A DNA stretch of 46,531 nucleotides from Candidatus Zixiibacteriota bacterium (GCA_041306185.1 JBFZFV010000060.1:1-46531); one strand, 5' to 3'. Positions 3,561-36,778 are shown, counted from the stretch's first letter. Notes: generated from the sequence alone by a model not told the origin. Numbers and translations: made by a program.

Positions 3561-3613
3561 AATATCGACCCTCCTGAGATCCAATCGAGTTTGTATTTAT
3601 GTTCTGTTCTATT

Positions 3614-4785: not shown

Positions 4786-4895
4786 TCTCTGCGGATTTTT
4801 CTGGCAAGAAATCACGGACAATAGCGCTTGAACGCGTCGGAATCCCGGCAGGGAGCGCGACGTTCTAAGAGAAAATATCTTGTAGAGTCGTCTGC

Positions 4896-6692: not shown

Positions 6693-6954
6693 GCCTTTCT
6701 TATACGTTTAAAATTCGGAAGGTTCAAATTCCTGTCATATTATCGCCAATTACGAATAAATAACCGAGGCGAAAAACGGCGGTCTGCGAAAAATCCAAAA
6801 AGGGCTTGATTTTGGTGCGTTCTATTTAATAGATTGAATTGAAAATAACAGGTATTCCGTTGGGGGTGGCTTGACGCCTGAGATCATACCCCCATGACCT
6901 GATCCGGATAATACCGGCGTAGGAAAACGGAATTGCGCATTTGCAGCGCCTTTG

Positions 6955-9485: not shown

Positions 9486-10853
9486 TTGGCGACGATTGAT
9501 TATATTATAATTCTTTTATATCTGGTTTCGATTCTTGCGGCCGGGTTGTGGAAAAGATCCGGCCGTGAAGAATCGGCCGGAAATTTCATTCTCGCGGGGA
9601 GGCAGTTAACCCTCCCCGCTTTCGTGGCCACCCTGGTATCGACCTGGTACGGCGGGATACTGGGGGTCGGAGAATTCAGCTATCGTTTCGGGCTTTCCAA
9701 CTGGTTTGTGTTCGGGCTGCCATACTATCTGGCGGCCCTTATTTTTGCGTTCTTTCTGGCCGGAAAAGCCCGCCGGGCCGAAGTGCTGACTATCCCGGAT
9801 CGCCTCGATGCCGTCTACGGCAAACCGGCGGCGGCGATCGGATCGATCGTCCTTTTTATCATGACCATCCCGGCGGCGTACGTTCTGATGCTGGCGGTAT
9901 TAATCGAAGTGCTGTTCGGCTGGCCGCTTTGGGTCGGGGTGCTGGTGGGGACCTTATTTTCAGTCATATACGTGCATTTCGGAGGATTCAATTCGGTGGT
10001 CAGAACCGATGTCCTGCAATTCTCTCTGATGTTTCTGGGATTTGCGATGCTCTTAGTATTTGCGGTGGCGAAATACGGAGGGCTCGGCTTTATAGAGGCC
10101 TCGGTTCCGCCGGAAAACCTCACCTGGCACGGCGGGAACAGCACCATCTATATTGCCATCTGGTATTTTATTGCTCTGCAGACTTTAATTGAGCCGTCGT
10201 TTCACCAGCGGTGCTATGCCGCAAAAAGCGAAAAGGTCGCCCGGAATGGAATCCTGATTTCGGTTTTATGCTGGTTCGTTTTTGACCTGCTGACGACCTC
10301 GTGCGGGATATATGCGCGAGCGATTTTGCCTCATCTCGACAATCCGGTGGCGTCTTATCCTGAGTTAGCCAGGGCAATTCTTCCGGTCGGACTGACCGGA
10401 ATCTTTGCCCTGGCTCTGCTGGCGACAGTGATGTCGACCATCGATTCTTATGCCTTTCTGGCCGCTTCGACTTTCGGGAGAGATATTGTCTGGCGGTTGT
10501 TCAAGGTCGGCGAAAACCGTATAACTTACTATACGCGGATAGGGCTGGTCGTTTCGGCGGTAATAGCGATTATAATCGCGCTTTTTTTTGAATCCATCGT
10601 GCAGTTGTGGCATCATTTCGGGTCGGTGGGGACTCCGGCGCTTTTGGTCCCGCTTCTGGCGGCATTTACCGGGAAGAAATACTATTCCGGGAGGGTGGCG
10701 GTCTGGTCGATCGTCCTGTCGGGAGGGCTATCCCTGGTCTGGTTGTTATCCAAGCACATGACCGCCGACGGTTCTTACTGGTTTGGAATCGAGCCGATTT
10801 TCCCCGGGCTGGCGGTTTCGGCGGCGATACTCCTCCTGGCACGTAAGCGCTAA
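9486..10853 (+). CDS. Sodium:solute symporter family transporter.
   Basis: About 13 TM helices and an SSF-like N-terminus (LAGRQLTLPAFVATLVSTWYGG). TTG start 4 nt after the receptor stop. Confidence 0.8.
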   Translation: MATIDYIIILLYLVSILAAGLWKRSGREESAGNFILAGRQLTLPAFVATLVSTWYGGILGVGEFSYRFGLSNWFVFGLPYYLAALIFAFFLAGKARRAEVLTIPDRLDAVYGKPAAAIGSIVLFIMTIPAAYVLMLAVLIEVLFGWPLWVGVLVGTLFSVIYVHFGGFNSVVRTDVLQFSLMFLGFAMLLVFAVAKYGGLGFIEASVPPENLTWHGGNSTIYIAIWYFIALQTLIEPSFHQRCYAAKSEKVARNGILISVLCWFVFDLLTTSCGIYARAILPHLDNPVASYPELARAILPVGLTGIFALALLATVMSTIDSYAFLAASTFGRDIVWRLFKVGENRITYYTRIGLVVSAVIAIIIALFFESIVQLWHHFGSVGTPALLVPLLAAFTGKKYYSGRVAVWSIVLSGGLSLVWLLSKHMTADGSYWFGIEPIFPGLAVSAAILLLARKR

Positions 10854-14195: not shown

Positions 14196-15395
14196 TTATG
14201 ACGGTTTAAGGGTGTCGACGGGGATTCTGTATTGATAAGGTTTGATAACAAAATCCCGGTAGTCGTAGGGGTTGCCGGTCATGCCGGCCTCGGCGGCCCG
14301 GGCGACATTATAGGCTTCGCGGGCCGTCATGTAATGCAATCTGAAGCCGGGATTGTCCCGATACTTCTTCTCCACCAGAGTCAGCATTTCATCCATTTCC
14401 GGGCCGAGGTTGGCTTCCATGCAACCTTTCTCGCACCCGTGAGTGTGTGGTCTGACAAATACCCAGTTGGGCCCTCCGAGAACATGAATATCCGCCTGAA
14501 CCCATTTATCGAACCGCTTAATACTCGGAGTCATATCGCAATATAAATCGCCGTCATCAATGGTGGGATGCAGGCCGAAGCGCCAATCGCTCCAGTCAAT
14601 GGCAATGGGGCCGGGAAATATCATAAGTCTGTCCGGACCGGGATCGATGCCGACGTGAGATATTTCCCCCTTATTATAGGATTTCGGACCGGGGTCGTCT
14701 TTGGCATAGAAGATTTTGTTGACTATGGCCGGCTGGGCGTCGGTGCAGAGGGCGGGAAAGGTGAAATCGGCGTAACAACCGAGCTCGATCAGAAGGTCGA
14801 TTTCATTATTTACTCCGCAAAAGTTTCTGCCGTTTTCTATGAGGGAATTATCCAGGGCGAAGTAACCGTGCACGAAAGCGAAGTGAATTTCGCCGTCTCC
14901 CGAAATCAGGGCCCCATGGGCCTGGAGAGAATCGATTCCGTCTCGGAATTTTTCCCGCAGGGATTCGGGAGTATCGTTGGCATGATGCAGGTGGACCTCG
15001 ATATCTCCGTATCCGCGGGCACAGATTCTAACCAGACTGTCGATCTGATATCCCTGGAATTGTTCGATGGGGTAAAAGAAAGTGCGCTGCAATTTGCGGC
15101 CGTCGCTGTCGATATGCTTATCCGCCAGGGCGGGATATTCCTGTGTCCATCTTCGAGTTCGCTCCAGGTTCTTTTCCGGCGACTTTCGCCCGGGTTCCCA
15201 ATGATCAATGACGGTGAAAATAATATCGACCGTGCCATCCATGCTGTTTCTGGACTGGGAGTTAAAATGATAGTCGCGGACCCACTTATGATATTTGCCA
15301 CGATAGATTTTCGTTATCGAAACCGCTCCGAGAATCATTATTCCTGCGGCCACGAAAAAGAATAAGTATCGACGCGCTCTTTTGCCGGCAATCAT
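14196..15395 (-). CDS. Membrane-anchored hypothetical protein, possibly a polysaccharide-deacetylase-like hydrolase.
   Basis: 399-aa ORF with an N-terminal TM helix and several His-rich motifs (EVHLHHAND, HTHGCEKGC). No confident family assignment. Confidence 0.55.
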   Translation of the reverse strand: MIAGKRARRYLFFFVAAGIMILGAVSITKIYRGKYHKWVRDYHFNSQSRNSMDGTVDIIFTVIDHWEPGRKSPEKNLERTRRWTQEYPALADKHIDSDGRKLQRTFFYPIEQFQGYQIDSLVRICARGYGDIEVHLHHANDTPESLREKFRDGIDSLQAHGALISGDGEIHFAFVHGYFALDNSLIENGRNFCGVNNEIDLLIELGCYADFTFPALCTDAQPAIVNKIFYAKDDPGPKSYNKGEISHVGIDPGPDRLMIFPGPIAIDWSDWRFGLHPTIDDGDLYCDMTPSIKRFDKWVQADIHVLGGPNWVFVRPHTHGCEKGCMEANLGPEMDEMLTLVEKKYRDNPGFRLHYMTAREAYNVARAAEAGMTGNPYDYRDFVIKPYQYRIPVDTLKPS

Positions 15396-15688: not shown

Positions 15689-15841
15689 ATGAAACGCACA
15701 TTCCAGCCGTCGAATCGGAAGAAGCTGAACGACCACGGATTTCGGAAGCGGATGGAGACTCGTCAGGGACGCCAGGTATTGGCCCGGCGCCGTGCCAAAG
15801 GGCGGAAGCGACTGACAGTTTCCATAAAAAAGAAAAAATAA
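15689..15841 (+). CDS. rpmH: 50S ribosomal protein L34. Not in the ORF track because it is under 60 aa.
   Basis: I translated this by hand: [50 protein letters not shown]. Canonical L34 sequence, directly upstream of rnpA. Confidence 0.9.
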
Positions 15842-15843
15842 CC

Positions 15844-16170
15844 TTGGCCCGTCATAGTCTGAAGGGGAGTAAGATTATTCAATCCCTTTTAAAATCCGGA
15901 AAAGGCAGACGAAGCGGGCATTTGATTTTGTATCACCAAAGGCTGCCTGAATTCGCAAACGATTACGCCGGGGCTTATTTAATTCCGAAAAGTGCGGGGA
16001 CCGCAGTGGAACGGAATCGTCTGAAGCGGTGGCTTCGGGAGGATTTTCGGTTGCTGCAAAAGGAACATCCGATTTACGGAGCGTTCATTGTTCGCTTTTC
16101 CGGGACGGCGGCCGAGGTGGTTCACGGGGATTTGAGCGAATCTCTGAAGAAATTGATGGAATCGATTTAA
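15844..16170 (+). CDS. rnpA: Ribonuclease P protein component.
   Basis: [10 protein letters not shown] motif and conserved position after rpmH. TTG start 2 nt after the rpmH stop. Confidence 0.85.
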
Positions 16171-16174
16171 GTCG

Positions 16175-16426
16175 ATGGCAGTTAAGAATATATCAATATT
16201 CAGTTATCCCTTTCTGGCGATAATTTATATCTATCGATACACTCTCTCACCGATAATCGGAAACCAATGCCGGTTCTATCCGACCTGTTCCCATTATGCC
16301 GAAGAAGCTTTGAAAGAGCACGGAGCGCTCAAGGGTATCTGGCTGGCAATCAAGAGGATAGGCCGATGTCACCCCTGGCATGAGGGGGGTTATGATCCGG
16401 TTCCGGATAATGGGAAGATGGAATAA
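16175..16426 (+). CDS. yidD: Membrane protein insertion efficiency factor YidD.
   Basis: [15 protein letters not shown]...[13 protein letters not shown] signature. Confidence 0.9.
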
Positions 16427-16440
16427 ACGAGGATAGTTCA

Positions 16441-18210
16441 TTGGAAAAGAAAACGATTATTCTGGTAGTGGCGCTGGGGCTTCTGGTAATATTCTGGGTC
16501 CCGATAATGACAAAACTGGGGCTGATTGAACCCCCGAAACCGAGGCCGATCGAACAAGAGCAGGCGGCAACCTCACAGCCGCCTCAGGATACTGCCTCGC
16601 AACCTCAGCAACAGTCAGGTTCGACCACTCCGCCTCCTCCCTCGGGAATGCCGCCGAGGGATACCTCGAAGATTGTCAATCTCGAGCAACCGGAACCATT
16701 CGCAGACATCCCCGCCGAGACATTATTCGTGGAAACCAATGTCTGGGATATAGTTATGACTAACCGTGGAGGCGGACCGGTATCGCTTAAACTGAAGGAG
16801 TATCACTACTATCATCAGGAAGACAGTCTGGTCGAATTGCTTCCGTTTTGCGAACGACCGGTTCCGATGCTGGCTTTTAATAATGGGACTTTTGACGCCA
16901 ATCGTTTGGTTTACGAAACAAGTCTCCAGCCGGGAACTTACCGGGTAACCAGTGATCCGCTGGAAATCACTTTTCGGCATGTCGCCGACAACGGCGGGGC
17001 GATTATCAAGAAGTATCGCTTCTACCCGGATCGCTACGATTATGATTTGATTGTCTCGGGCGACAATATCATGCCGTTCAATTTCGGCAGCGAATATTCT
17101 CTGGTCTGGGATAATGGCTTCATTCCGACCGAACCGGACCCCAACGACGATTACAGTTACTTCTGGGCGATGGCGCAGATGGGGACGGAGCGGGAAAAAT
17201 TTGACGACTACGACGACAATAAGTTCAGCCTGACTCACGACGGTGAAACGCGATGGATCGCCAAGCGGTCGAAGTTTTTCTCGGCGATAATGGCGCCGAG
17301 GTCTCAGTATGGCACGGCGGCCATCGCGACCGGGCAAAAATTCCCGGTAACGATCAACGGGCAGAACATAACCGCCCGGATGCTGTCCATCGGGCTGGAA
17401 ATGGCCCTGCCGTACGCTCAGAATTTCAGCGACAGCTTTTCGGTATTCGCGGGGCCGGTCGATTATGAACTTCTGAAAAATTTCAATCCGGAAGTGACCG
17501 ACATCCTCGATATCGGGACCACTCCGTACGTGGGCTGGATAGTCAAAATATTCGCCGTTCCCATCATGTGGTTATTGCCCCGGATGTACGATTACGTTCC
17601 GAATTACGGGTTCGTCATCCTGCTGTTCGCATTGGCCATCAAGCTGATGACCATGCCGCTTTCGAAACGGATGGTGCGGTCGATGTCGGCGATGCGGGAT
17701 CTTCAGCCTAAAATGGAAGAGCTGAAGAAAAAGCACAAGAATAACCCGCAGGCGCTCAATCAGGCAATGATGAAGCTGTACAAGGAAGCAGGGGTAAATC
17801 CGCTTTCGGGGTGTCTCCCTTACCTGCCGCAGTTGCCCCTCTTTTTCGCGCTGTTCGCGGTGTTTCGCTCGACCGTTCTCTTGCGGCAGGCGCCGTTTAT
17901 TCTCTGGTGGGACGATCTTTCGCGCGGGGCGCAGGCGATAACCGATCCATACATTATCCTGGTTCTTCTGATGGTGGGGCTGATGTTCGTGCAGCAAAAG
18001 ATGACCATGACCGACCCCAAGAACAAGGCGCTGGTGTACTTAATGCCTTTGATTTTCGGGTTCTTCTTCTATAAGGCTTCGGCCGGGCTGGTGCTGTACT
18101 GGACCAGCTTCTCGCTTTTCTCCTGGATCGAACAGCTGGTGTTCGGGCGTCCGAGTCCGGCGGCCTCTATGGGGGCGGCGCCACCCGTGAAATCAAACGG
18201 CGGAAAATAG
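16441..18210 (+). CDS. yidC: Membrane protein insertase YidC.
   Basis: N-terminal TM, P/S/T/Q-rich linker, periplasmic domain, then the conserved 5-TM core (PIMWLLPRMYDY...LMTMPLS...KLYKEAGVNPLSGCLP). Confidence 0.9.
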   Translation: MEKKTIILVVALGLLVIFWVPIMTKLGLIEPPKPRPIEQEQAATSQPPQDTASQPQQQSGSTTPPPPSGMPPRDTSKIVNLEQPEPFADIPAETLFVETNVWDIVMTNRGGGPVSLKLKEYHYYHQEDSLVELLPFCERPVPMLAFNNGTFDANRLVYETSLQPGTYRVTSDPLEITFRHVADNGGAIIKKYRFYPDRYDYDLIVSGDNIMPFNFGSEYSLVWDNGFIPTEPDPNDDYSYFWAMAQMGTEREKFDDYDDNKFSLTHDGETRWIAKRSKFFSAIMAPRSQYGTAAIATGQKFPVTINGQNITARMLSIGLEMALPYAQNFSDSFSVFAGPVDYELLKNFNPEVTDILDIGTTPYVGWIVKIFAVPIMWLLPRMYDYVPNYGFVILLFALAIKLMTMPLSKRMVRSMSAMRDLQPKMEELKKKHKNNPQALNQAMMKLYKEAGVNPLSGCLPYLPQLPLFFALFAVFRSTVLLRQAPFILWWDDLSRGAQAITDPYIILVLLMVGLMFVQQKMTMTDPKNKALVYLMPLIFGFFFYKASAGLVLYWTSFSLFSWIEQLVFGRPSPAASMGAAPPVKSNGGK

Positions 18211-18220
18211 AACCTTATCC

Positions 18221-19630
18221 GTGGCCGGTAAATCAGTGCATGATACGTACGACCGCGAAGCGATCGCGGCTATAATTACCCCTCCCGGCGAGGGAGGGAT
18301 CGGGGCGATCCGCATTGCCGGGAACGGCTCGCACGAAGCACTGCGGGCAATATTCCGTCCCATCCATAGTCCAGGCGACAAATGGGAAAATTTCAGGCTG
18401 TACTACGGACACATGGTCGGGTCGGACGGGGAGGTCATCGACGAAGTCACCGCCGTGACCATGCCGGAAGATCAGTCGTACACCGGGCAGGAGCAGGCGG
18501 AAATATTCTGCCACGGCGGACAGGTGGTCCTGCGAAAAATTTTGGCAGAAATTACCGGACGGGGGATTCGTCCGGCCGAACCGGGAGAATTCACGCGGCG
18601 GGCGTTTCTTTCCGGGAGAATCGATCTGGCCAAAGCCGAAGCGGTGGCGGAACTGATCGCATCGAAGACCGAATATTCCTACAGCGTCGCGAAGAAGAAT
18701 CTTCTGGGGCAAATGTCGGATTATATCAACGATATCAGGGAAAACGCGATTCAACTTCTGGCGGAAATCGAGGCCTCGGTGGATTACCCCGAAGAAGACC
18801 TCGAACCGGCCGAACAGCTTAAACTGCTCGATCTAAACGACCTGATAATTAGCAAAACCAATGAACTGGCAATGACTTATCGCGGCGGGAAAATCATCAG
18901 GGAAGGATTCAATATCGCCATTGCGGGACGGCCCAACGCCGGGAAATCATCGCTGTTTAATCTCCTGCTGAATCAGACGAGAGCGATTGTGGCTCCGGTA
19001 CCGGGGACTACTCGCGATTATCTGACTGAATGGATCGACCTCGAAGGGATTGCCGTATCATTAACCGATACCGCCGGGCTAAGAAAGAAATCCGGGGAGA
19101 TTGAGAAGCTGGGGCAGAAAGCGGCACTGGAGATAATGAACCGGTCGGACTTGATTGTCTGGATTGCCGATGTTTCGCGCAAGCGTTGGACCGGAGAGCT
19201 TAAAACGGACCTGAAAGATTTCCCATATAGAGATAAGTTATTGATATTGCTGAACAAAGTCGACCTGATAGATGAGGCGTCGACATCCTACAAAAAACCG
19301 GCAGAAGCCCTGAGCAGAGCCCTGTATCTCTCCTGCAAGACCAAAAAAGGATTCGCGGAGCTGAAAAAAGAACTTCTTCGGCGAATCAAATCCGAAATGC
19401 CGGATCTGACCGACCGCCTGGTGGTAACTTCCGAACGCCACAAGCAGAAACTCGATATCGCCGGGAAAGCGTTTGAGAAAGCCGGGGAGCTGCTTCACCA
19501 GGGAGAATCTCCGGAGATAATCGCATTTGAGCTGAAGTCGGGAATCGACGCTATTGACGAAATCACGGGGCGTATATATAATGAGGAAATTTTAGACCGG
19601 ATCTTCGCGCAGTTCTGTATCGGGAAATAA
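18221..19630 (+). CDS. mnmE: tRNA modification GTPase MnmE.
   Basis: N-terminal domain (IAAIITPPGEGGIGAIRIAG), G domain (GRPNAGKSSLFN, DTAG, NKVD) and C-terminal CIGK. Confidence 0.9.
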   Translation: MAGKSVHDTYDREAIAAIITPPGEGGIGAIRIAGNGSHEALRAIFRPIHSPGDKWENFRLYYGHMVGSDGEVIDEVTAVTMPEDQSYTGQEQAEIFCHGGQVVLRKILAEITGRGIRPAEPGEFTRRAFLSGRIDLAKAEAVAELIASKTEYSYSVAKKNLLGQMSDYINDIRENAIQLLAEIEASVDYPEEDLEPAEQLKLLDLNDLIISKTNELAMTYRGGKIIREGFNIAIAGRPNAGKSSLFNLLLNQTRAIVAPVPGTTRDYLTEWIDLEGIAVSLTDTAGLRKKSGEIEKLGQKAALEIMNRSDLIVWIADVSRKRWTGELKTDLKDFPYRDKLLILLNKVDLIDEASTSYKKPAEALSRALYLSCKTKKGFAELKKELLRRIKSEMPDLTDRLVVTSERHKQKLDIAGKAFEKAGELLHQGESPEIIAFELKSGIDAIDEITGRIYNEEILDRIFAQFCIGK

Positions 19631-19668
19631 CTTTTCCGTAAGAAATGCAAATAATCCGTGAGGACGAA

Positions 19669-19684
19669 CGTTTCACGTGAAACA
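19669..19684. promoter_or_regulatory. parS centromere-like site, 15/16 match to TGTTTCACGTGAAACA.
   Basis: cGTTTCACGTGAAACA palindrome in the mnmE-mnmG spacer, abutting the mnmG ATG. Confidence 0.75.
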
Positions 19685-21567
19685 TGCGACAGCCAGATTT
19701 TGACATAATCGTTATCGGCGGAGGGCACGCTGGCGTAGAAGCGGCCCTGGCCGGGTCCCGCCTGGGAAAAAAAGTCGCCCTGGTGACTATGGACAAGAGC
19801 CGCCTGGCGCTGATGTCCTGCAATCCCTCCATAGGGGGCCTGGGGAAATCGCATATTGTGAAAGAGGTGGATGCCCTCGGGGGATTGATGGGAAAGGCCA
19901 CCGATGCCACCGGAATCCAGTTCCGAAGATTAAATCTGTCCCGTGGACCGGCAGTCTGGTCGACCCGGGCGCAGGCGGACCGGATCGGATACAACGAATA
20001 TGTCTGTAAGGCGGTCGAGGATGATCCCAATGTCGAGGTAATCGAAGCGACCGCCGGGGCGATTCTAACCGAGAACAATAAAATTACCGGGATCAAAACC
20101 GAAGAGGGCGAAAGTATCTCTTGCCGGGCCGTGATTGTCTGCACCGGAACTTTTCTCGGGGGGCTTATCCATATCGGAGATAAACAGATAAAAGCGGGCC
20201 GCCGAGGAGAAAAAGCGGCATACCAGCTGTCCGAATCATTCCTTTCACTCGGTTTCGAAGTCGGCCGGCTTAAAACGGGGACCCCTCCTCGGCTTGATGG
20301 CAGAACCATCGACTGGGCGCAATGCCAGATACAACCGGGCGAAGAACCGATTCCGTTTTTCTCTTATAAGACTCTTCCATATCATATTGAGCAAGTCCCG
20401 TGTCACCTTACTTACACTACCGATGAAACCAAGGCCATTATCCTGGCAAATCTGAAAAAATCGGCCATGTTTTCGGGACAGATAACATCAATCGGACCAA
20501 GATATTGCCCTTCGATTGAAGATAAAATCTTCCGTTTCAAGGATAAGCAGCGTCACCACATCTTTCTTGAGCCGGAAGGAAACGGTACCGATGAGATTTA
20601 TCCGAACGGCTTTTCGACCTCGCTTCCGGAAGATGTCCAGCTGGCCGCGGTAAGAACCATAACCGGTCTGGAAGAAGTGGTCATGACCAAGCCGGGTTAC
20701 GCCGTGGAATACGATTACTGCCCGGCCTACCAGATAAAAGCCTCGCTCGAGACCCGGCGGATAGCCGGATTATACTTCGCAGGGCAGTTGAACGGGACTT
20801 CCGGCTACGAAGAAGCGGCCGGGCAGGGGCTGATGGCCGGGATTAACGCTTCGCTCGCTATCGATAACGAACCGCCGCTGGTTCTGGACCGGGCCGAGAG
20901 TTATATCGGGGTGATGATCGACGATCTAATCACCCGGTCGACCACCGAACCGTACCGTATGTTTACTTCGCGGGCTGAATATCGCCTGGCGCTGCGGGAA
21001 GACAACGCCCGCGATCGTTTGTTCAAGTACGCGGAACGTTATGGCCTGATTGATAATAACGATATCGAAAGCTTCGCCCTTATGCAGAGGGAGACCGAAG
21101 CCGAGGTGTCACGCCTGCGGGATGTATTCATCCCTGTTGCCAAACTGGATGGCCTGGCGGAGAGATTCGTCAAGCGGGATGCCATTTCACTGGCGGAGCT
21201 GTTGAAAGTCCCCCGGGTCGGCTATGACCAGATAGAGCAATTTATCCCTAAAGGCGACGGTTTTTCGCATAACCCCGAAATCCGGGAGCGGGCGGCGGTG
21301 CAGATCCGCTACGAGGGATACATCGCCAAGCAGGAGCGGGAAGTGGCCAAGTTCCGAAGGCAAGAGGAAGAAATTATCCCCGGAAATATGGAATTCGCCT
21401 CGCTGACGGGGCTCCGCAACGAAGCTCGGGAGAAATTCACGAGGTTTCGCCCGACATCGCTGGGGCAGGCGGGGAGAATCGAAGGGGTGACGCGGGGGGA
21501 TCTGGCCGCTCTGGCCGTGCATATCAAAAAGTTTCGCACTCGTGAATTTCTATCGGCCGGAGAATGA
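19684..21567 (+). CDS. mnmG: tRNA uridine 5-carboxymethylaminomethyl modification enzyme MnmG (GidA).
   Basis: FAD-binding N-terminus (DIIVIGGGHAGVEAA), full length 627 aa, conserved position. Confidence 0.92.
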   Translation: MRQPDFDIIVIGGGHAGVEAALAGSRLGKKVALVTMDKSRLALMSCNPSIGGLGKSHIVKEVDALGGLMGKATDATGIQFRRLNLSRGPAVWSTRAQADRIGYNEYVCKAVEDDPNVEVIEATAGAILTENNKITGIKTEEGESISCRAVIVCTGTFLGGLIHIGDKQIKAGRRGEKAAYQLSESFLSLGFEVGRLKTGTPPRLDGRTIDWAQCQIQPGEEPIPFFSYKTLPYHIEQVPCHLTYTTDETKAIILANLKKSAMFSGQITSIGPRYCPSIEDKIFRFKDKQRHHIFLEPEGNGTDEIYPNGFSTSLPEDVQLAAVRTITGLEEVVMTKPGYAVEYDYCPAYQIKASLETRRIAGLYFAGQLNGTSGYEEAAGQGLMAGINASLAIDNEPPLVLDRAESYIGVMIDDLITRSTTEPYRMFTSRAEYRLALREDNARDRLFKYAERYGLIDNNDIESFALMQRETEAEVSRLRDVFIPVAKLDGLAERFVKRDAISLAELLKVPRVGYDQIEQFIPKGDGFSHNPEIRERAAVQIRYEGYIAKQEREVAKFRRQEEEIIPGNMEFASLTGLRNEAREKFTRFRPTSLGQAGRIEGVTRGDLAALAVHIKKFRTREFLSAGE

Positions 21568-22208
21568 TTCCGGTGGCCGAAAAACCCTCAAAAGATATTC
21601 CTTTATTCAGCAGTTCCAAGCTGCTATTGCAGTATCTGGACTTTCGAAAGCTCAATCATTACATCGACATGCTTGAAGAGGCAAACCGCCGGATCAATCT
21701 TGTTTCACGTGAAACATACCGGGATGACTTCTATCGTTTCACCGCCGACAGCCTTGTGCCTCTGGCTTTCGGGCATTCCCTGTCAGGGCGTTTTTTCGAT
21801 ATCGGGTCCGGTGGCGGTTTCCCTGCAATCCCTCTCCTTCTGGCCTCCCCGGCTTTGTTCGGGACCATGGTAGAGCGGACACAGAAAAAGGCGCGGTTTC
21901 TCGAGAGCGTTATCGCCTCTCTGCAGATCAATGCGGATGTAATTCCGCTGGATTTCACCGAGGCGGTGCGGACTTTCGACGGTCCGCCCTTTTCATTCGG
22001 GAGCATGAAATACGTCAGGCTCGATTCCCGAATCATGGCCGATGTTAAGAGGCTTTTGGTTTCGGGGGGGAAATTTTTTTATTTTTCCCGAATCGACCAG
22101 TCCTTTCCCAGGGAAATTACTTCAATTCCGCACGAAACGCTGGAATATTATCTCGATGGTACCGATGTAGTTCGCACTTTATCCGTATTTTCTTTCGGGA
22201 CCGCATAA
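21564..22208 (+). CDS. rsmG: 16S rRNA (guanine527-N7)-methyltransferase RsmG (GidB).
   Basis: SAM motif FDIGSGGGFPAIPL. ATGA overlap with the mnmG stop. Confidence 0.85.
   Translation: MIPVAEKPSKDIPLFSSSKLLLQYLDFRKLNHYIDMLEEANRRINLVSRETYRDDFYRFTADSLVPLAFGHSLSGRFFDIGSGGGFPAIPLLLASPALFGTMVERTQKKARFLESVIASLQINADVIPLDFTEAVRTFDGPPFSFGSMKYVRLDSRIMADVKRLLVSGGKFFYFSRIDQSFPREITSIPHETLEYYLDGTDVVRTLSVFSFGTA
21701..21716. promoter_or_regulatory. parS site, perfect 16-bp TGTTTCACGTGAAACA.
   Basis: Exact palindrome inside the rsmG coding sequence (encodes LVSRET). Confidence 0.8.
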
Positions 22209-22296
22209 GATTTTTATTGCCAATCCCTGCAAATTATAATAAGCTGCGTATTATTAAAATTTTAGACCGTTTTTTCCCGCGAGGACTTAAGTAAAA

Positions 22297-23055
22297 GTGG
22301 CAAAAATAATTGCAGTGGTCAATCAAAAGGGGGGCGTGGGTAAAACCACCACCGCGATCAATCTGTCGGCCTGCCTGGCCATGGCGGAACTGAATACTCT
22401 TTTGGTCGATTTCGATCCCCAGGCCAACACTACCTCCGGGGTCGGGTTCGACAAGGCGAAATTGGAGCATTCTGTCTATGATGTCCTGGTGGGGAGCAGG
22501 ACTTTCGCGGAAATCATTCTCGCCACCGACCTCGATCATCTGAAACTGGCGCCGTCGAACATTGCTCTGGTCGGGGCCGAGGTGGAGATGGTGCCGATTG
22601 CATCGCGCGAGCATATCCTGGCGCGGACGATTGCACCTATCGTGGACAAGTATGACTACATTATCATCGACTGCCCGCCGTCGCTGGGGCTTTTGACCCT
22701 CAACGCGCTCTGCGCCGCGAATTCGGTCCTCATACCGATCCAGTGCGAGTACTACGCGCTCGAGGGATTGAGCCAGCTTCTCAATACCATACAACTGGTG
22801 CAGAACAATCTCAACCCGTCGCTCGAAATCGAGGGGGTCCTGTTGACCATGTTCGACAGCAGGCTGAATCTGGCGCGCCAGGTGGCGGAAGAGGCTCGGA
22901 AATTTTTTAACGACCGGGTGTACAGCACGGTCATCAATCGCAATGTCCGGTTATCGGAGGCTCCCAGTTTCGGCAAGCCGATCATCATGTACGATATCTT
23001 GTCGACCGGAGCGGAAAATTATATGGCGCTGACCAAGGAGGTATTGAGCCGATGA
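22297..23055 (+). CDS. parA: Chromosome partitioning ATPase ParA/Soj.
   Basis: Deviant Walker A KGGVGKTT and typical ParA length and motifs. Confidence 0.92.
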   Translation: MAKIIAVVNQKGGVGKTTTAINLSACLAMAELNTLLVDFDPQANTTSGVGFDKAKLEHSVYDVLVGSRTFAEIILATDLDHLKLAPSNIALVGAEVEMVPIASREHILARTIAPIVDKYDYIIIDCPPSLGLLTLNALCAANSVLIPIQCEYYALEGLSQLLNTIQLVQNNLNPSLEIEGVLLTMFDSRLNLARQVAEEARKFFNDRVYSTVINRNVRLSEAPSFGKPIIMYDILSTGAENYMALTKEVLSR

Positions 23056-23906
23056 GCGGAAAGGTCGTGTTGGGGCGCGGACTGGAAGCCCTCATACCGA
23101 AAATAGAAAAGAAGGTCGAGGAAGGTACTTACGGTACAGTGCAAGAGATCGCGCTCGAGAAGATCGTGCCGAACCCGATGCAGCCGCGGAGGCAGTTCGA
23201 CGAAAAGGCGCTTGAGAGCATGGCCGAATCGGTCAAGAGCCAGGGGGTGCTGCAGCCGGTCCTCGTCCGTAAGAAAGATGACAAGTTCATTTTGATCGCC
23301 GGCGAAAGAAGATTCCGCGCGGCGAAACTGGCCGGGCTCAAAGCGGTCCCGGCGATTACCCTAGAACGCAAAGACGAAAGCGAAATGCTTCAGATGGCCC
23401 TGGTCGAAAATATCCAGCGGGAGGACCTCAATCCGATGGAGGAAGCCGAGGCTTACCGGCAGCTGGTCGACGAGGCGGGACTGACTCAGAACCGGATCGC
23501 CACCCAGGTCGGCAAAAGCCGCACCGCCATAGCCAATACCTTGCGGCTGTTGAATCTTCCGGACAAGATCAAGACTTTTATGAGGGAAGGAAAACTGACC
23601 GAGGGGCACGCCCGGGCGATTCTGGCCCTCGATAACGACCTGGCCCGGGTCCGCCTGGCCGAGAGGATCGTGGCCGAGAGTTTGTCGGTCCGGACCGCCG
23701 AAGATTCCGTGAAGAGGGTTAAGCGCCGCAAGCTTATTCCGAAAAAGAGAATACCGGCCATGGTCGATGCCGAGAATTATTTGAAGCAGCTTCTGGGGAC
23801 AGGTGTAAAAATATCGACCGGGTTGAAGAACGGAAAGATTGAAATCGAGTTTTACGGCGAGGAGGACCTCGATCGCATTCTCGATTTGTTCAGAAGGATT
23901 AGTTAG
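23052..23906 (+). CDS. parB: Chromosome partitioning protein ParB/Spo0J.
   Basis: ParB box GERRFRAA, HTH region and a C-terminal dimerisation domain. ATGA overlap with parA. Confidence 0.92.
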   Translation: MSGKVVLGRGLEALIPKIEKKVEEGTYGTVQEIALEKIVPNPMQPRRQFDEKALESMAESVKSQGVLQPVLVRKKDDKFILIAGERRFRAAKLAGLKAVPAITLERKDESEMLQMALVENIQREDLNPMEEAEAYRQLVDEAGLTQNRIATQVGKSRTAIANTLRLLNLPDKIKTFMREGKLTEGHARAILALDNDLARVRLAERIVAESLSVRTAEDSVKRVKRRKLIPKKRIPAMVDAENYLKQLLGTGVKISTGLKNGKIEIEFYGEEDLDRILDLFRRIS

Positions 23907-31663: not shown

Positions 31664-31700
31664 TAGCGTCGGGTATATTTACCGACGCTATTATTTTCTT
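31664..31700 (+). terminator. Hairpin plus T-rich tail after the LamG-dockerin gene. Member of the GCGTC(R)GG hairpin family.
   Basis: TAGCGTCGG-gtatattta-CCGACGCTA followed by ttattttctt. Confidence 0.6.
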
Positions 31701-31765
31701 GCCCTCGTGAAGTCGCGTATCTTATTATTAATAAAGGATATTTATATCTCACAAAGGAGTCAGGG

Positions 31766-32392
31766 ATGATTGAGGGATACAGGTTATCGAAACTGCCGAA
31801 ATACGGCAAAACATTCGTCGCGGCGTTTGCACTATTACTGATCGGAGTGGTCCTCTGGATGGTTTTCCTCGGGGCCATGGAATCCGGCATGATCGGAACC
31901 TCCGATGAACTTGCCGGAAGCGACATCATTCAGGAAGGAGCCCATCAGGGAGAAGTGGAAATTCCTGAAGAAGAAGCGATCGAACCGCTGATAGAAGATT
32001 CCGAACTGGTGACCGCTCCGAACTGGTCCGATTCCGGGGAACAGCGGGTAATCACCGAGGCCGATACCTCCGCTTTCCTCGACACCGAACCGGCGGTGCC
32101 GTTCCGGGATGCTTTCGAAAGCAACCTGGAATGGTCGATGGAACATTTTGCGTCGGAGCTTTTGCTCTTTTTCGCGGCCGGGCTGTTGTTTCTGTTCACC
32201 GGTTATTCCGATAGGCTCAAGCGGTTTTTGTATATCTGGCTGGGGATTTTGATTTTCGTTCACGCCATCGGGATGGCCGGAATGGGTTTCTGCTGGCCGG
32301 CGAATGCCATCATGTACGTGGTCGGGCCGCTGATCCTGTTGACTTTCCTGGTCATGGCGGTGATGATTTTGAAAGACCTCGGCCGTAATTAG
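31766..32392 (+). CDS. Hypothetical membrane protein (1 N-terminal + 2 C-terminal TM helices, acidic middle).
   Basis: AAAGGAG RBS, 208 aa, clear TM segments. Confidence 0.6.
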   Translation: MIEGYRLSKLPKYGKTFVAAFALLLIGVVLWMVFLGAMESGMIGTSDELAGSDIIQEGAHQGEVEIPEEEAIEPLIEDSELVTAPNWSDSGEQRVITEADTSAFLDTEPAVPFRDAFESNLEWSMEHFASELLLFFAAGLLFLFTGYSDRLKRFLYIWLGILIFVHAIGMAGMGFCWPANAIMYVVGPLILLTFLVMAVMILKDLGRN

Positions 32393-32512
32393 ATTTTCAT
32401 CTCGCCCTGATAATCCGGCTATTGAAAAAGGGGTATCGGGCCGATACTTAATTTATAGGGCTTGAGGCCCAAATATGTCAGCCAAACTCGCAACCGGGAG
32501 CCGGACAGGAAG

Positions 32513-32773
32513 ATGAAAGAGAAATTTGTCACGCTGTTTATTCGCGCCTTGAAAGAGGGGGATTACGACGAAATCGAACGCCTCCTCGAATACATGAACA
32601 ACCACAAAGACCATTATGCCGCCATCGCGCGGGAAATGGGTGACGACGATTTCGACCGGCTCGAAGAAGCCTACCAGTTTGGAGCCCGGAAGAAGGGGTT
32701 CTTCAACGATGCTCAGCGGGACAAAATAATCCGGTTCACCAAGGGGCTGGAAAAAGCATCATACGCGTATTAG
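32513..32773 (+). CDS. Small hypothetical protein. Alternative start at 32462.
   Basis: 86-103 aa open frame of helical, charged composition (EIERLLEYMNNHKDHYAAIAREMGDDDFDRLEEAYQFG). Confidence 0.4.
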   Translation: MKEKFVTLFIRALKEGDYDEIERLLEYMNNHKDHYAAIAREMGDDDFDRLEEAYQFGARKKGFFNDAQRDKIIRFTKGLEKASYAY

Positions 32774-32806
32774 GATTTAAGACAGTTCCAATTTCTTATT
32801 GGGAAT

Positions 32807-32849
32807 GCGTCAGGTCACCGCTCGCAAAGCCTCGCTAAGGACCTGACGC
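32807..32849 (+). repeat. Intergenic hairpin element, copy A of the GCGTC(R)GGTCAC...GACC(Y)GACGCAACT family.
   Basis: GCGTCAGGTC - 23-nt loop - GACCTGACGC, a perfect 10-bp stem with no U tail. The flanks GGTCAC and GCAACT are shared with copy B. Confidence 0.6.
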
Positions 32850-32908
32850 AACTTCAAATACCCAAATATTTTTCAGCTTAACGAGCCTCAATTGAGTATT
32901 ATATCTAT

Positions 32909-33805
32909 ATGGCGACCGATTACCGCAGATACCTCGATCCCGAAATCGTCGGCAAACTGAAAGGGATGGAACTCCGCGCCCGGATGGTAGTGGAGGGATT
33001 CATCGCCGGGCTGCATAAGTCTCCGTACCACGGCTTTTCGGTGGAATTCGCCGAACATCGTCAATACATGCCGGGAGACAACATCCGGAATATCGACTGG
33101 AAAGTTTTCGCCAAGTCTGACCGCTACTATATCAAGCAGTACGAAGAAGAAACCAATCTGAAAGGCTATCTCCTATTGGACTGCTCGGCCTCGATGGGTT
33201 ACACTTCCGGCGGGACGGTCAAGCTGGAATATGCTTCGCTCCTGGCGGCATCACTGTCGTTCATGATGCTGAAACAGCGGGATGCGGTGGGACTGGTGAC
33301 CTTCGATGAAAAGATTCGGCGCTATATTCCTCCGCGGTCGAAATCGGGGCATATCCATGTGATGCTTCAGGAACTGGCCAACCAGAAAGCCTCGGACAAG
33401 ACCGACATCGCTTCGGCTCTCCACGAAATGGCGGAACGGATTTCCCGCCGGGGGCTGGTGGTTATCTTCTCGGATTTACTCGACGACCCTCACGAAATAA
33501 TATCGGGGTTGAAGCATTTCCGGCATAAGAAGCACGAAGTCATTCTTTTTCATATCCTCGATCCCCGCGAGCGGGATTTCGCTTTCCCGCAGGAAGCGAT
33601 TTTCAAGGATTTGGAAACCGGCGAAGAACTGACCACCCTTCCGTGGCAGATCCGCAAACACTTCAAAGAAGCAACCGAGGCTTTTTCATCCCGGATTGCC
33701 GCGGAATGCCGGCAGAGTCGGATCGATTATCACCTCATCGACACTTCGATGCCGTTCGACAAAGCCCTCTACGCCTTCCTGGCCAAACGGGAACGGCTGT
33801 ATTGA
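32909..33805 (+). CDS. DUF58 (vWA-like) protein. The usual MoxR partner.
   Basis: YHGFSVEFAEHRQYMPGDNIRNIDWKVFAKSDRYYIKQYEEE DUF58 signature. Confidence 0.85.
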   Translation: MATDYRRYLDPEIVGKLKGMELRARMVVEGFIAGLHKSPYHGFSVEFAEHRQYMPGDNIRNIDWKVFAKSDRYYIKQYEEETNLKGYLLLDCSASMGYTSGGTVKLEYASLLAASLSFMMLKQRDAVGLVTFDEKIRRYIPPRSKSGHIHVMLQELANQKASDKTDIASALHEMAERISRRGLVVIFSDLLDDPHEIISGLKHFRHKKHEVILFHILDPRERDFAFPQEAIFKDLETGEELTTLPWQIRKHFKEATEAFSSRIAAECRQSRIDYHLIDTSMPFDKALYAFLAKRERLY

Positions 33806-33924
33806 TATATTAAATCTTTCCATTATTTCGAATTTCCTTGACCCCTTTCCGAACAAAACCTATATAAGTCCTTGCTTGAAATTGAAATATACCCTAACCC
33901 AAAACTAACCGACGGAGTGTAAAT

Positions 33925-34197
33925 TTGGCTATGAAGAGAACTTGCTTTTTATATATATTTTCGGCCGCCTTTGCGGCCTGCATGGGGCTGGCCTTTATGA
34001 CCGGTTGCGGTTCGAATGACCCGAACGCGGAGGCTAAGAAGATTCTGGAGGACCGCTGCCAGATGTGTCATGATCTTCCGCAGAAGAACATGAAAGCCCC
34101 GGAAGAATGGAAGCCGTTTCTGGAAGGACATGCCGCCCGGGCCGAGCTGACTCAGGAACAGGTCGAAACCCTGGCGAAATATCTGGCCGCCAGATAA
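33925..34197 (+). CDS. Small lipoprotein mono-heme c-type cytochrome.
   Basis: Lipobox LAFMTGCGS and a single CxxCH (RCQMCHD), 90 aa. Confidence 0.6.
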   Translation: MAMKRTCFLYIFSAAFAACMGLAFMTGCGSNDPNAEAKKILEDRCQMCHDLPQKNMKAPEEWKPFLEGHAARAELTQEQVETLAKYLAAR

Positions 34198-34263
34198 TTT
34201 TATGGGAACCAACTTAACTGCCGCAGGTAGAATGGTGAAGCGGACGGGGACGGGACAATCATC

Positions 34264-36663
34264 GTGACCAAGTATTCATTACGCAGTCTTTATACGGCTT
34301 TGCTGATGGTGCTGATTTTCGGCGCAGTCGGTAAGGCCGCTGTTCTTGAGGGGACAGTCCGGGACTTGGATTCCGGCGACCCGATTCCACAGGCGACCAT
34401 TCGCGTTCTCAACACCGGCCTGACCGCCATGGCCAACGACGACGGCCGCTACCGGCTCAAACTCAAGCCGGGATTATATAACCTCAAGTTCAGCCATATC
34501 GCGCATTATTCCGGAACCGAATATGTCAATATCCCCGAAGGGGATACCACTGTGATACTCGATATCGGCCTCAAGCCAAGCACGATTATCCTGAAAAAAA
34601 TCACCGCTTATTCCAAACGGTACGGGCCGGGCGAAAGAATCATCCTCGAAGCCATCAAACGGAAACAGGAAATACTCGACAAGCTGAAATCGTACACCTT
34701 CGATGCTTACAGCAAAGTGGTGGCATCGGACCACAGCAAATCCGCCGAAGAAATCCTGGTTATCCTCGAAAGCCAGGTACAGGCATACTGGCAAAAGCCG
34801 AACGATTTCAAGGAAGTGATCCTGGCCCGAAGACAGACGGCCAATATCGATGCCGCAGAGAACCTTCTGTCGGTAGGGCAGCTTTTAAATTTTAACCAGA
34901 ATCGTCTCGACCTGGGGAGGTACAATGTCGTATCTCCGACCGCCGAGGATGCCCTGGATCATTACAATTATTATCTGGCAGATACCTTGTACTTCGATGG
35001 CGCCCCGGTATTCCGGCTGGAAATCGAACCGAAGAACGAAACCGAGCCCCTTTTCGCCGGGACGATCGACATCGCCGACAGCACCTATGAAGTGGTGGGG
35101 GTCGACGTGACCTTCAGCAAAGGATTCGATACCCGGTTCATGAAAGATATCCGCTATACCCAGACTTATGCCGAATTCCAGAACGAAATCTGGATGCCGG
35201 TCGAAATCCGCTTCACGGCGCTATTGAAACTCGGCATTCCGGCCTTCCCGGATATCGATGTCGATTACGCGGCAACCCTGCACAATTACACTTTCACGGT
35301 CGAAGAACCGGAGAGGGTCTTTGACGGCTACGTTATCGAAGTCGCTCCGGACGCCGACGCCGCCGACACTTTGATCTGGGCCAGGGCGCAAATCACTCCG
35401 TTAACCGAATATGAGAAATCCGAGTACAATCGGATTGATTCGGTTGAAAATGCTCCGAAACCGCTGGCCCAGCAAGCCCTGATATATGGGCTGGGTGCGG
35501 TTTTCGTGGCGATGTTCGAGCCGAGTATCTTCCATTTTAGCCGTGTTGAAGGAGCCTACCTGGGACTGCCGCTGGATTTCAAGTTCTTTAATGACCGGCT
35601 TACCACGAAACTGGAAACAGGCTATGCTTTCGACGCCAAGCTCTGGCAGCATCGCTACGGCCTGGAGTACCGGCTCAACAATATCCCGGAAGTCAGCATC
35701 GGCGGAGAATACCGCAAGCAGGTAACAAAAAGAACGGTCCTGCACCATCCTTTCGCCGACCTAAGTAACACCGCAGGAGCGCTGTACGATGGCCACGATC
35801 CGGACGACTACTACCTCAAGGAAGGCTTTACGCTCAATATAAAGGGCTCGCCCGTGCGCAAGACCAGGGTAGAATTGAGCTATAACGATTATCTGGAATC
35901 TTCACTGGCCAAAACCACCGATTTTACCCTTGACGACTGGTTCGATTCGGACAAGAACGATTCCATCGTGGACCATCGCGACAACCCTGCGATTATGGAC
36001 GGCCGGCTGCGGTCGGTCGGAGCCAATTTCAGCTGGGATAACCGTCCCCTGATAAAGGACAAAGGAATCGTGAAAAAACTCCCGATTACCGAATACACCG
36101 CGTTCGGACTCGGTATCGAAGTGGCCGACCCGGATTTAATCGACAACGATTTCGAATTCACCCGGATGACCGCAACGGCGTTTCGGCGGCAGCGGTTTTT
36201 CAACCTGGGGATAACCAATATTTTCGTCACGGCCGGGTGGTCCGATAAGTTCCTCCCTCCGCAGCACTATTTCACGCAGGATTTCGGAGAGGGCTTCATG
36301 ATTTCGCGCCTCCGCTTCAAGACCCTCGGAAACAAGACCTTTTTGGGCGACCGGGCGGTTTCGTTCTATGTCGATCATAATTTCGGGAGGACCCTCTTCA
36401 TGAAGAGCGGCATTCCGCTTGTGAAGGATATCCCCTTTTCGCTGGGCGTGCACGGCGGAGGATTCCTGACCCGGTTCGAACATCAGCCCGGAATCTTTTA
36501 TGACGAACATTACCTCGCGGCGAAGAACTGGTATCGGGAATTCGGGTTTTCGATTACCGGGATTACGATCTTCGATATCGGAGTCTATTTCACCTGGCAG
36601 TTATCGGATTATAATACTAACGATTTCTCGGTCAACATGAATATGGGGTTGCTGCAGTTTTAG
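34264..36663 (+). CDS. Large secreted protein with an N-terminal CarboxypepD_reg-like domain and a beta-rich body (DUF5686-like, Bacteroidota-type).
   Basis: Signal peptide, then VLEGTVRDLDSGDPIPQATIRVLNTGLTAMANDDGRYRLKLKPGLYNLKFSHIAHY; a long aromatic-rich C-terminal region ending GLLQF. Confidence 0.7.
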   Translation: MTKYSLRSLYTALLMVLIFGAVGKAAVLEGTVRDLDSGDPIPQATIRVLNTGLTAMANDDGRYRLKLKPGLYNLKFSHIAHYSGTEYVNIPEGDTTVILDIGLKPSTIILKKITAYSKRYGPGERIILEAIKRKQEILDKLKSYTFDAYSKVVASDHSKSAEEILVILESQVQAYWQKPNDFKEVILARRQTANIDAAENLLSVGQLLNFNQNRLDLGRYNVVSPTAEDALDHYNYYLADTLYFDGAPVFRLEIEPKNETEPLFAGTIDIADSTYEVVGVDVTFSKGFDTRFMKDIRYTQTYAEFQNEIWMPVEIRFTALLKLGIPAFPDIDVDYAATLHNYTFTVEEPERVFDGYVIEVAPDADAADTLIWARAQITPLTEYEKSEYNRIDSVENAPKPLAQQALIYGLGAVFVAMFEPSIFHFSRVEGAYLGLPLDFKFFNDRLTTKLETGYAFDAKLWQHRYGLEYRLNNIPEVSIGGEYRKQVTKRTVLHHPFADLSNTAGALYDGHDPDDYYLKEGFTLNIKGSPVRKTRVELSYNDYLESSLAKTTDFTLDDWFDSDKNDSIVDHRDNPAIMDGRLRSVGANFSWDNRPLIKDKGIVKKLPITEYTAFGLGIEVADPDLIDNDFEFTRMTATAFRRQRFFNLGITNIFVTAGWSDKFLPPQHYFTQDFGEGFMISRLRFKTLGNKTFLGDRAVSFYVDHNFGRTLFMKSGIPLVKDIPFSLGVHGGGFLTRFEHQPGIFYDEHYLAAKNWYREFGFSITGITIFDIGVYFTWQLSDYNTNDFSVNMNMGLLQF

Positions 36664-36670
36664 GTTTGAG

Positions 36671-36728
36671 GCGTCGGGTCACAATTTCGGATTCGATATT
36701 GCCCAACTCCGAAATCAAGACCCGACGC
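36671..36728 (+). repeat. Intergenic hairpin element, copy B of the GCGTC(R)GG family, with a nested inner hairpin.
   Basis: GCGTCGGGTC ...(AATTTCGGA...TCCGAAAT)... GACCCGACGC. Relative to copy A it carries a compensatory A-T to G-C change at the sixth stem pair. Confidence 0.6.
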
Positions 36729-36741
36729 AACTGAAAAGCAT

Positions 36742-36778
36742 GCGGTCAGGTCGCTTCCGGGTCTGACCGCCTTTTTTA
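36742..36778. terminator. Bidirectional rho-independent terminator between convergent genes.
   Basis: GCGGTCAG-gtcgcttccggg-CTGACCGC followed by cttttttatt. A-rich on the other side. Confidence 0.75.

Follow-up and report, generated by a model that had tools for sequence, protein, structure and literature searches.

The repetitive extragenic palindromes (REPs) of Escherichia coli and Pseudomonas, together with the bacterial interspersed mosaic elements (BIMEs) and REP doublets (REPINs) built from them and the tyrosine transposases associated with REPs (RAYTs), form a known class of systems (PMC3116915; PMC3479197; PMC6006769). Here we describe two hairpins, copies A and B, in a 46,531-nt stretch of DNA from a Candidatus Zixiibacteriota bacterium (GCA_041306185.1, JBFZFV010000060.1:1-46531; hereafter the window, whose numbering is used unless another locus, cited by its L number, is named). 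We propose, with a probability of about 0.88, that they are REP elements, i.e. non-autonomous mobile DNA hairpins of a REP–RAYT system of Zixibacteria and neighbouring lineages of the Fibrobacteres–Chlorobi–Bacteroidetes (FCB) group. The REP class is known, whereas the present family, with its GTT tag, two-part hairpin and a core shared across phyla, appears to be undescribed; a literature search for Zixibacteria and RAYT found no paper. The features at issue are as follows.

32807..32852, minus strand: probable REP copy A ('A-type'), seen in the sequence and scored by the family model (47.7 bits, E ~1e-13)
36671..36731, minus strand: probable REP copy B ('B-type'), seen in the sequence and the window repeat listing and scored by the family model (61.5 bits, E ~1e-18)
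32909..33805, plus strand: DUF58/VWA gene downstream of copy A, the anchor for the comparison of orthologous loci
34264..36663, plus strand: DUF5686/CarboxypepD_reg gene, with its stop codon 8 nt before copy B

Like the classical REPs, the present hairpins are short extragenic imperfect palindromes that carry an unpaired, conserved tag at their 5' foot. They seem to occur in many copies, both singly and in clusters or doublets of alternating orientation, lie chiefly at the 3' ends of genes and have between inverted copies an HUH/Y1 transposase gene that is apparently confined to a single locus. The A-type and B-type copies alternate much as the Y and Z types do in E. coli BIMEs. The present family differs in its tag, which is GTT and not GT[AG]G, and in its two-part hairpin, in which a 10-bp basal stem and a YT/GT internal loop carry a free distal helix of ~5–25 bp. 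Classical REPs are genus- or species-specific, whereas the basal core seen here is nearly identical across metagenome-assembled genomes (MAGs) labelled as several phyla; the hosts also differ, being uncultured Zixibacteria, Ignavibacteria and Calditrichaeota.

That some RAYT subclasses have atypical structures without GTAG is already accepted in PMC6006769. One of them, TnpA-Y1 subclass 2.6 (Bertels RAYT group 5), is found mostly in Bacteroidetes and is flanked by 'atypical secondary structures'; judged by motifs as described in that paper, it is the closest described RAYT group. The proteins described below share with it the Y motif (YIH[QNAD]NP, fitting YIH[QN]NP), a WQ-type motif (WQ, WN or WM, followed by PR), an FCB-group host and flanking hairpins that lack GTAG and recur elsewhere in the genome. 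They differ in the residue before the HUH motif, which is S or T (PSHLH, PTHLH) and not N, and in length (~160 aa, compared with a mean of 179). The text of PMC6006769 that was searched does not describe the sequence of the subclass 2.6 flanking structures.

The GCGTC in the stem prompted a comparison with the CGTC-tagged REP superfamily (Di Nocera et al., 2013; PMC3733652), in which CGTC is unpaired and terminal, stems have 8–9 bp, loops have 4–5 nt and a transposase is lacking. Like ours, its members are small palindromes that contain CGTC; they occur in Chlorobi and Bacteroidetes, among others, and frequently form head-to-head dimers. In the present family, however, CGTC is paired within the stem and variable across copies (CCGTC, GTGTC, GCGGC), a much longer hairpin is formed and there is an associated RAYT; the paired, variable CGTC and the architecture led to the rejection of this superfamily.

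Distribution, fold and informative strand of the hairpin family

The first-pass annotation, made from the sequence alone, had placed three hairpins, A, B and C, just past the stop codons of plus-strand genes, and its coordinates, sequences and placements all proved exact. Copy A lies 34 nt 3' of the stop (32773) of a small open reading frame (ORF) and 56 nt 5' of the DUF58 start (32909), between two plus-strand genes with which it is co-transcribed. Copy B lies 8 nt past the DUF5686 stop (36663), directly ahead of a canonical terminator, and C lies 45 nt past the stop of a 551-aa laminin-G/dockerin gene. The window alone gives no statistical case for a hairpin family: the 8-mer GCGTCRGG occurs 6 times versus 4.3 expected and is not over-represented, and 12–14-mer counts within the window are at chance level except for copies A and B themselves. 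These two have in common the identical blocks GCGTCRGGTCAC (12 nt) and GACCYGACGCAACT (14 nt). The shared flanks GGTCAC and GCAACT had been pointed out earlier. Both can be accounted for: in GGTCAC the basal stem ends and is joined by the complement of a GT internal loop that is conserved, and in GCAAC(T) the stem end is joined by the complement of the unpaired, conserved GTT.

Further copies were sought, as the annotation had advised, with a pattern, here one of stem and flanks, and with a covariance model. The exact pattern GCGTCNGGTCAC-N15-45-GACCNGACGCAACT, with 22 specified bases, was scanned in one genome per bacterial species and matched 35 loci in other genomes, compared with ~2 expected by our own calculation. 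The hosts were MAGs labelled as Zixibacteria, Ignavibacteria/Ignavibacteriales, Calditrichaeota, 'FCB group' and one Acidoferrum. Between 3 and 5 exact copies each were seen in several MAGs, and the maximum was 5 in one MAG; MAG CAZLBP01 carried at least 5 exact copies and further model matches. The covariance model, built from the exact-pattern copies, recovered many more, with 61 non-overlapping copies that score ≥29 bits, from 36 sources, namely the 35 loci together with the window. A third suggested check, comparison with Rfam, gave no match at A, B or C, whether the gathering threshold or a permissive E of up to 10 was applied. Since 35 exact-pattern loci were found where ~2 were expected, and the model gave E values of 1e-13 to 1e-18, the homology of A and B is, judged by sequence, real and far beyond chance.

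The copies are clustered, often several per few hundred bases and in both orientations, with neighbours 21–300 nt apart; inverted pairs ~21 nt apart were found in L014 and L030, and A-type(−)/B-type(+) alternating arrays in L063 and L097–L101. By a crude ORF call, 47 of the 61 copies are intergenic. Gaps between divergent genes hold few of them (4 of 45), and with respect to co-directional flanking genes they show no orientation bias (13 versus 17). The unbiased orientation, the intergenic bias and the rarity between divergent genes fit dispersed mobile repeats tolerated at gene 3' ends and do not fit a dedicated cis-regulatory RNA. Three copies in L036 (4516-4552, 6415-6475 and 6499-6537) fall outside the FCB group, on a contig of a MAG that bears the label Candidatus Acidoferrum (Acidobacteriota); either horizontal transfer or mis-binning of the contig would account for them.

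Both hairpins fold well as DNA (z = −3.6 to −6.2; 0 of 200 dinucleotide shuffles equally stable). The proposed functional unit is on the minus strand of the window and consists of an unpaired 5'-GTT, a 10-bp stem (NNGTCAGGTC; P1), a YT/GT internal loop and a variable, covarying distal hairpin (P2). In copy A (46 nt), the arms GCGTCAGGTC (32807-32816) and GACCTGACGC (32840-32849) enclose a 23-nt loop; on the minus strand GTT (32852-32850) is followed by P1 (32849-32840 paired to 32816-32807), and the inner region, CCTTAGCGAGGCTTTGCGAGCGGTGA, is degenerate. In copy B (61 nt), GCGTCGGGTC (36671-36680) pairs with GACCCGACGC (36719-36728) across 38 nt that include an inner helix, AATTTCGGA/TCCGAAAT. 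Its minus strand reads GTT (36731-36729), P1 (36728-36719 with 36680-36671), a TT/GT internal loop and then P2, ATTTCGGA/TCCGAAAT (36715-36708 with 36691-36684), which one more A-T pair (36716 with 36683) and a closing G.T wobble extend.

Most copies fold better on the reverse complement of the strand on which the family was first read, as is seen from several comparisons. The GTT-first strand was the more stable in 46 of 56 distinct copies (Wilcoxon p = 5e-6), and over the same 56 copies it contains 84 G.T pairs versus 20 on its complement. The difference noticed in the first-pass annotation, A-T to G-C at stem position 6, is real, and on the GTT strand this position is A-U in 26 family copies, G-C in 6 and G.U in 4; the four G.U copies become A.C mismatches on the strand that had been read first. 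This strand-specific G.T asymmetry hints at a single-stranded substrate.

Sequence and structure are conserved in different parts of the element. The inner hairpin is wholly different in sequence and length between copies while the arms are conserved. In the exact-pattern set it shows 83 doubly changed cells versus 31 in shuffles, and pairing in 91% of cells versus 27–43% with slid partners. A second set (67 copies, alignment A6) was obtained from RAYT loci and then with the family model, so that the exact stem was not required; it showed 181 doubly changed cells versus 54 in shuffles. Here the two outermost P1 pairs covary as well, the first being CG in 33 copies, GC in 21, UA in 3 and AU in 2, and the second CG in 43, UA in 17 and AU in 3; the inner 8 bp (GTCAGGTC/GACCTGAC) are nearly invariant, and the T and G of the YT/GT loop are invariant. 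The GTT tag is likewise invariant (66/66), the base before it is variable, and the distal helix opens with G.T and then covaries freely. The earlier suggestion that structure, rather than sequence alone, appears to be under selection holds only where the inner hairpin and the two outer stem pairs are concerned; the inner 8 bp, GTT and the internal loop are conserved in sequence. What is selected in the basal core and the tag is thus the sequence, and in the remaining parts just the pairing, as expected of a hairpin recognized by a protein.

In some copies the distal helix is missing and the basal stem closes on a short loop (L033 4136-4184; L049 2442-2493 and 2996-3047; L060 2447-2500 and 2985-3038). 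RAYT-flanking copies are among those without it; the distal helix is thus dispensable for membership of the family.

The similarity of A and B might instead be a coincidence among GC-rich hairpins, or the two might be integron attC-like sites. The 8-mer core is, after all, not enriched in the window, and attC sites, too, follow the stop codons of cassettes and carry a conserved GTT. The 35 matches to 22 specified bases and the model E values speak against coincidence. As for attC, the GTT of our family is unpaired and columns 121-123 of alignment A6 are unconserved, so there is no AAC at the far end to match it; no integrase was found in the loci, the spacing of 21–300 nt is not cassette-sized, and the flanked gene is predicted to encode a RAYT. 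Neither the paired R''(RYYYAAC)/R'(GTTRRRY) boxes of attC nor its cassette spacing nor an integrase was seen, and attC identity was rejected. We consider both variants of this explanation extremely improbable.

RAYT genes, orthologous sites and the role of the hairpins

Inverted REPs around a RAYT gene are the defining mark of a REP–RAYT system (PMC3116915; PMC6006769), and this arrangement recurs in the present family. In L033, five copies surround a 160-aa ORF that scores 95.1 bits (cutoff 80) against NCBIfam NF047646, 'REP-associated tyrosine transposase', and 29.3 bits (cutoff 23) against Pfam Y1_Tnp (PF01797). Homologues in L042 and L022 (47–55% identity) are likewise bracketed by inverted copies, which makes three MAGs in all. 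A metagenome scan with the three-protein RAYT alignment returned 52 loci, and in ~24 of 30 metagenomic loci with ≥43% identity a plus copy lies upstream and a minus copy just 3' of the stop. The upstream copies end within ~120 nt of the start codon, most of them within ~10 nt. Metagenomic homologues with only ~30% identity had no flanking match to the family model. PSHLH/PTHLH and YIHxNP are invariant in the RAYT alignment (A3), and for one related protein, RAYT P0001 (159 aa), E. coli TnpArep (4ER8) was the sole PDB match, to which it aligns in the HUH, WQPR and YIxxNP motifs. By sequence, then, the flanked gene is a RAYT. In L022 (Zixibacteria MAG UBA10806), a minimal REP–RAYT–REP unit of 614 nt (1110-1723) sits exactly between split transketolase genes.

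The REP/BIME-like option raised by the first-pass annotation is upheld by the copies across genomes and by the RAYT genes that they flank. Its protein-recognition option also stands, in the specific sense that the hairpin, by analogy, is presumed to be the recognition site of the RAYT transposase.

One might ask whether A and B are solo ends (LE/RE) or palindrome-associated miniature inverted-repeat transposable elements of an active IS200/IS605-type insertion sequence. The flanked protein belongs to the Y1_Tnp fold family (PF01797), the chemistry and the recognition of single-stranded DNA (ssDNA) hairpins would be alike, and homologues are annotated merely as 'transposase' in some sources. 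In IS608 and ISDra2, as here, an ssDNA hairpin and an adjacent short guide are read by a Y1 HUH transposase, and G.T wobbles are tolerated on one strand only. The L033 protein, however, passed the RAYT equivalog model (95 versus 80) and failed the IS200 transposase model (20 bits, under the cutoff of 55). The RAYT-flanking hairpins are mutually inverted, whereas IS200/IS605 ends carry theirs on the same strand (PMC6006769). No tnpB accompanies the RAYT gene, and hairpin copies vastly outnumber that gene, in the loci examined, and the identical RAYT P0001 occupies one conserved chromosomal position, with the same neighbours, in 7 contigs of different samples. An IS200/IS605 origin is in our view very unlikely.

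RAYT P0001 is likely to belong to the same genome as the window. It is found on contigs of Joint Genome Institute metagenomes 3300027762 and 3300009082, both of which also hold genes of the window, and in the sister MAG GCA_041306325.1, from a submission series shared with MAGs bearing the window's genes; this MAG is absent among the matches displayed for the window's proteins. The gene is flanked upstream by a B-type copy (GTTGCGGCAGGTCCTGATTTTGGAG...CCAAAATTGTGACCTGCCGC) and downstream by a copy of the A-type that matches copy A exactly over its inner 26 nt (L063). In at least one neighbouring A-type copy P1 differs from that of A by G-C to C-G and G-C to T-A changes, with pairing kept. Copy B of the window resembles the B-type REP upstream of the L063 RAYT, as well as copies in L020 and L041. 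The co-occurring population has 9–12 copies within 2 kb around its RAYT. The tetranucleotide correlation between the RAYT contig and the window (r = 0.83) is within the range of window chunks and of other Zixibacteria and is uninformative.

Further A/B doublets lie 3' of RAYT P0001, in numbers that differ between strains. A 188-nt unit, consisting of an A-type copy and a B-type copy with an insertion, is present there in 2 or 3 tandem copies, depending on the strain or sample, at the following sites; these repeats are a copy-number polymorphism of a BIME-like array.

L097, 3480-3850: 188-nt tandem units
L099, 1234-1790: 188-nt tandem units
L100, 988-1355: 188-nt tandem units
L101, 914-1470: 188-nt tandem units

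Next to this array, again on its 3' side, L097 4001-6480 (also L098–L101) has 36% GC versus 52% in the window and encodes a Hypoth_Ymh-domain protein and a 180-aa protein without a Pfam match; this AT-rich DNA may be a foreign island.

Orthologous sites differ in whether they carry a copy. In L109 the DUF58 protein is 90% identical and the gene order is the same, yet the 80-nt block containing A is missing and only 26 nt separate the convergent genes where the window has B and the terminator; the family model had no match in L109–L112. In L113 an independent copy lies just upstream of DUF58; it points the other way, and the neighbour upstream is not the same. Taken with the RAYT–hairpin evidence, the absence of A and B from a close relative with the same gene order argues that they are REP elements. 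In the near-identical strains L001–L008, A and/or B are present wherever contigs span the sites, and no recent movement was seen. In L110 (DUF58 87% identical) a restriction–modification pair, an N6_N4_Mtase/SNase fusion and RE_MjaI, lies at 3070-4990, just upstream of DUF58, and takes the place of the window's small ORF and REP A. The otherwise near-identical strain in L003 (7356-9560; GCA_041306245.1) has a DUF5686 protein of 734 aa versus 799, in a locus 195 nt shorter, owing either to an in-frame deletion or to an assembly difference.

REPs of E. coli stabilize upstream mRNA and affect translation when they lie within ~15 nt of a stop codon. Copies A and B could accordingly be cis-acting structured RNAs of plus-strand mRNAs, such as stabilizers, attenuators or terminators, or sites for an RNase or RNA-binding protein, selected where they are. 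Both lie just past plus-strand stop codons, B only 8 nt away, and as RNA the plus strand folds stably, with minimum free energies of −21.1 kcal/mol for A and −29.7 kcal/mol for B. Several results go the other way: across the family the opposite strand folds better, orientation to flanking genes is unbiased, Rfam has no matching family (E up to 10), copies cluster around a transposase gene, and A and B are missing at the same sites in the relative whose neighbouring protein is 90% identical. In addition, A has no U tract and B precedes a separate canonical terminator. On the strand comparison and the orientation statistics, plus-strand RNA was rejected as the primary explanation, and the dedicated regulatory role that the annotation had allowed for A and B finds no backing in their unbiased orientation and their absence from the relative's orthologous sites; we regard it as improbable. 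RNA effects may nevertheless arise as by-products that do not explain the family: the transcribed hairpins could stabilize the 3' ends of plus-strand mRNAs, and copy B, 8 nt beyond the stop, could interfere with translation termination, as REPs so placed in E. coli can.

If A and B are REP elements, the mechanistic model can be taken from E. coli TnpArep and the IS200/IS605 TnpA proteins (PMC3479197; PMC6006769). A single-copy HUH/Y1 RAYT would bind the folded GTT strand in ssDNA, GTT at the foot of the hairpin being the putative counterpart of the GTAG guide or tag. The RAYT would then cleave and rejoin DNA beside the hairpin and so spread copies into intergenic DNA, mostly at gene 3' ends.

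The homology, the covarying structure, the strand asymmetry, the clustering of multiple copies, the bracketing of RAYT genes by the hairpin and the presence/absence differences are direct observations in favour of REP elements, and a number of points weigh against that assignment. The conserved unpaired tag is GTT and not the canonical GT[AG]G. A model scan with filters off found only 2 family copies in the 46.5-kb window, and both are singletons there, not REPIN doublets. What ties the RAYT to the window is that they co-occur in samples, that a sister MAG has it and that the REP subtypes are shared. Invariance of P1 in the exact-pattern set is circular, since the exact P1 was the search criterion, and the RAYT-locus set corrects this bias only in part, its model having been trained on the exact-pattern set. 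Finally, the activity of the RAYT is predicted, and its binding and cleavage of the hairpin, like current mobility, are drawn from analogy.

As REP elements, two puzzling conserved hairpins are explained as ordinary mobile repeats and need no annotation as a new regulatory RNA. REP–RAYT systems, studied almost only in Proteobacteria, are extended to uncultured Zixibacteria and Ignavibacteria, and a clearly defined element with GTT in place of GTAG offers a concrete substrate for the question of how RAYTs read hairpins. The covariance model could be used to mask or annotate repeats in MAGs of the FCB group, where they probably cause contig breaks.

A core shared across phyla is unusual for REPs and bears on the idea of an ancient, vertically kept partnership of REP–RAYT with its hosts. 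RAYTs beside a near-identical hairpin core are only 45–57% identical. A speculative and rather doubtful possibility is that a single REP–RAYT partnership predates the divergence of the FCB-group phyla and has persisted, or that it moves between phyla, and is retained through use by the host. If so, that use might be, for example, ssDNA processing at forks, genome structuring or control of mRNA ends, and the elements would not be a lineage-specific selfish repeat.

Canonical and candidate terminators and other features of the window

Two further hairpins of the window lie close to the REP copies or were once grouped with them.

31664..31690, plus strand: copy C, a candidate intrinsic terminator, with a 9–11 bp hairpin and the T-rich tail TTATTTTCTT
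36742..36778, plus strand: canonical intrinsic terminator, with GCGGTCAGGTC...GGTCTGACCGC ahead of a T run, 11 pairs and the tail CTTTTTTATT

The proposed three-member family survives as A and B only. Copy C, with arms TAGCGTCGG/CCGACGCTA separated by 9 nt, is a stable DNA fold (z = −6.3; 0 of 200 shuffles equally good), but scores just 11.8–13.4 bits (E = 0.04–0.7, filters off, whole window) with the family model. What it has in common with A and B is GCGTCGG; the GGTC core and the GTT tag are lacking. On these grounds it was ruled out as a member, so that the family has two members in the window and not three, and C looks like an ordinary intrinsic terminator unrelated to the REPs.

The terminator at 36742-36778 stands between REP B and a convergent hydrolase gene, and a whole-window scan with the family model gave no match to it. 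Its stem, GCGGTCAGGTC/GGTCTGACCGC, is similar to the REP basal core GTCAGGTC, and in L013 a REP-like hairpin (GGCGTCAGGGAC...) comes after a REP in a similar manner. The resemblance may be due to chance or to a decayed second REP, which the model does not score.

A tRNA/tmRNA scan of the window found nothing. The region 15690-23906 holds a cluster in the style of an origin-proximal one, with rpmH, rnpA, yidD, yidC, mnmE, mnmG, rsmG, parA and parB; beside rpmH there is no dnaA but an opposite-strand 399-aa ORF (14196-15395) without a Pfam match. From 1 to ~33 kb the GC skew is positive, and it does not switch anywhere in the window; only two REP copies are available for a comparison of replication strands. 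The sole Rfam match in the window is a thiamine pyrophosphate (TPP) riboswitch (RF00059) at 6852-6942 on the plus strand, which scores 72.5 bits against a gathering score of 54.3. It lies directly upstream of a TonB-dependent receptor gene (7011-9482), which is followed by a sodium:solute symporter gene (9486-10853), and the three likely form a thiamine-uptake operon.

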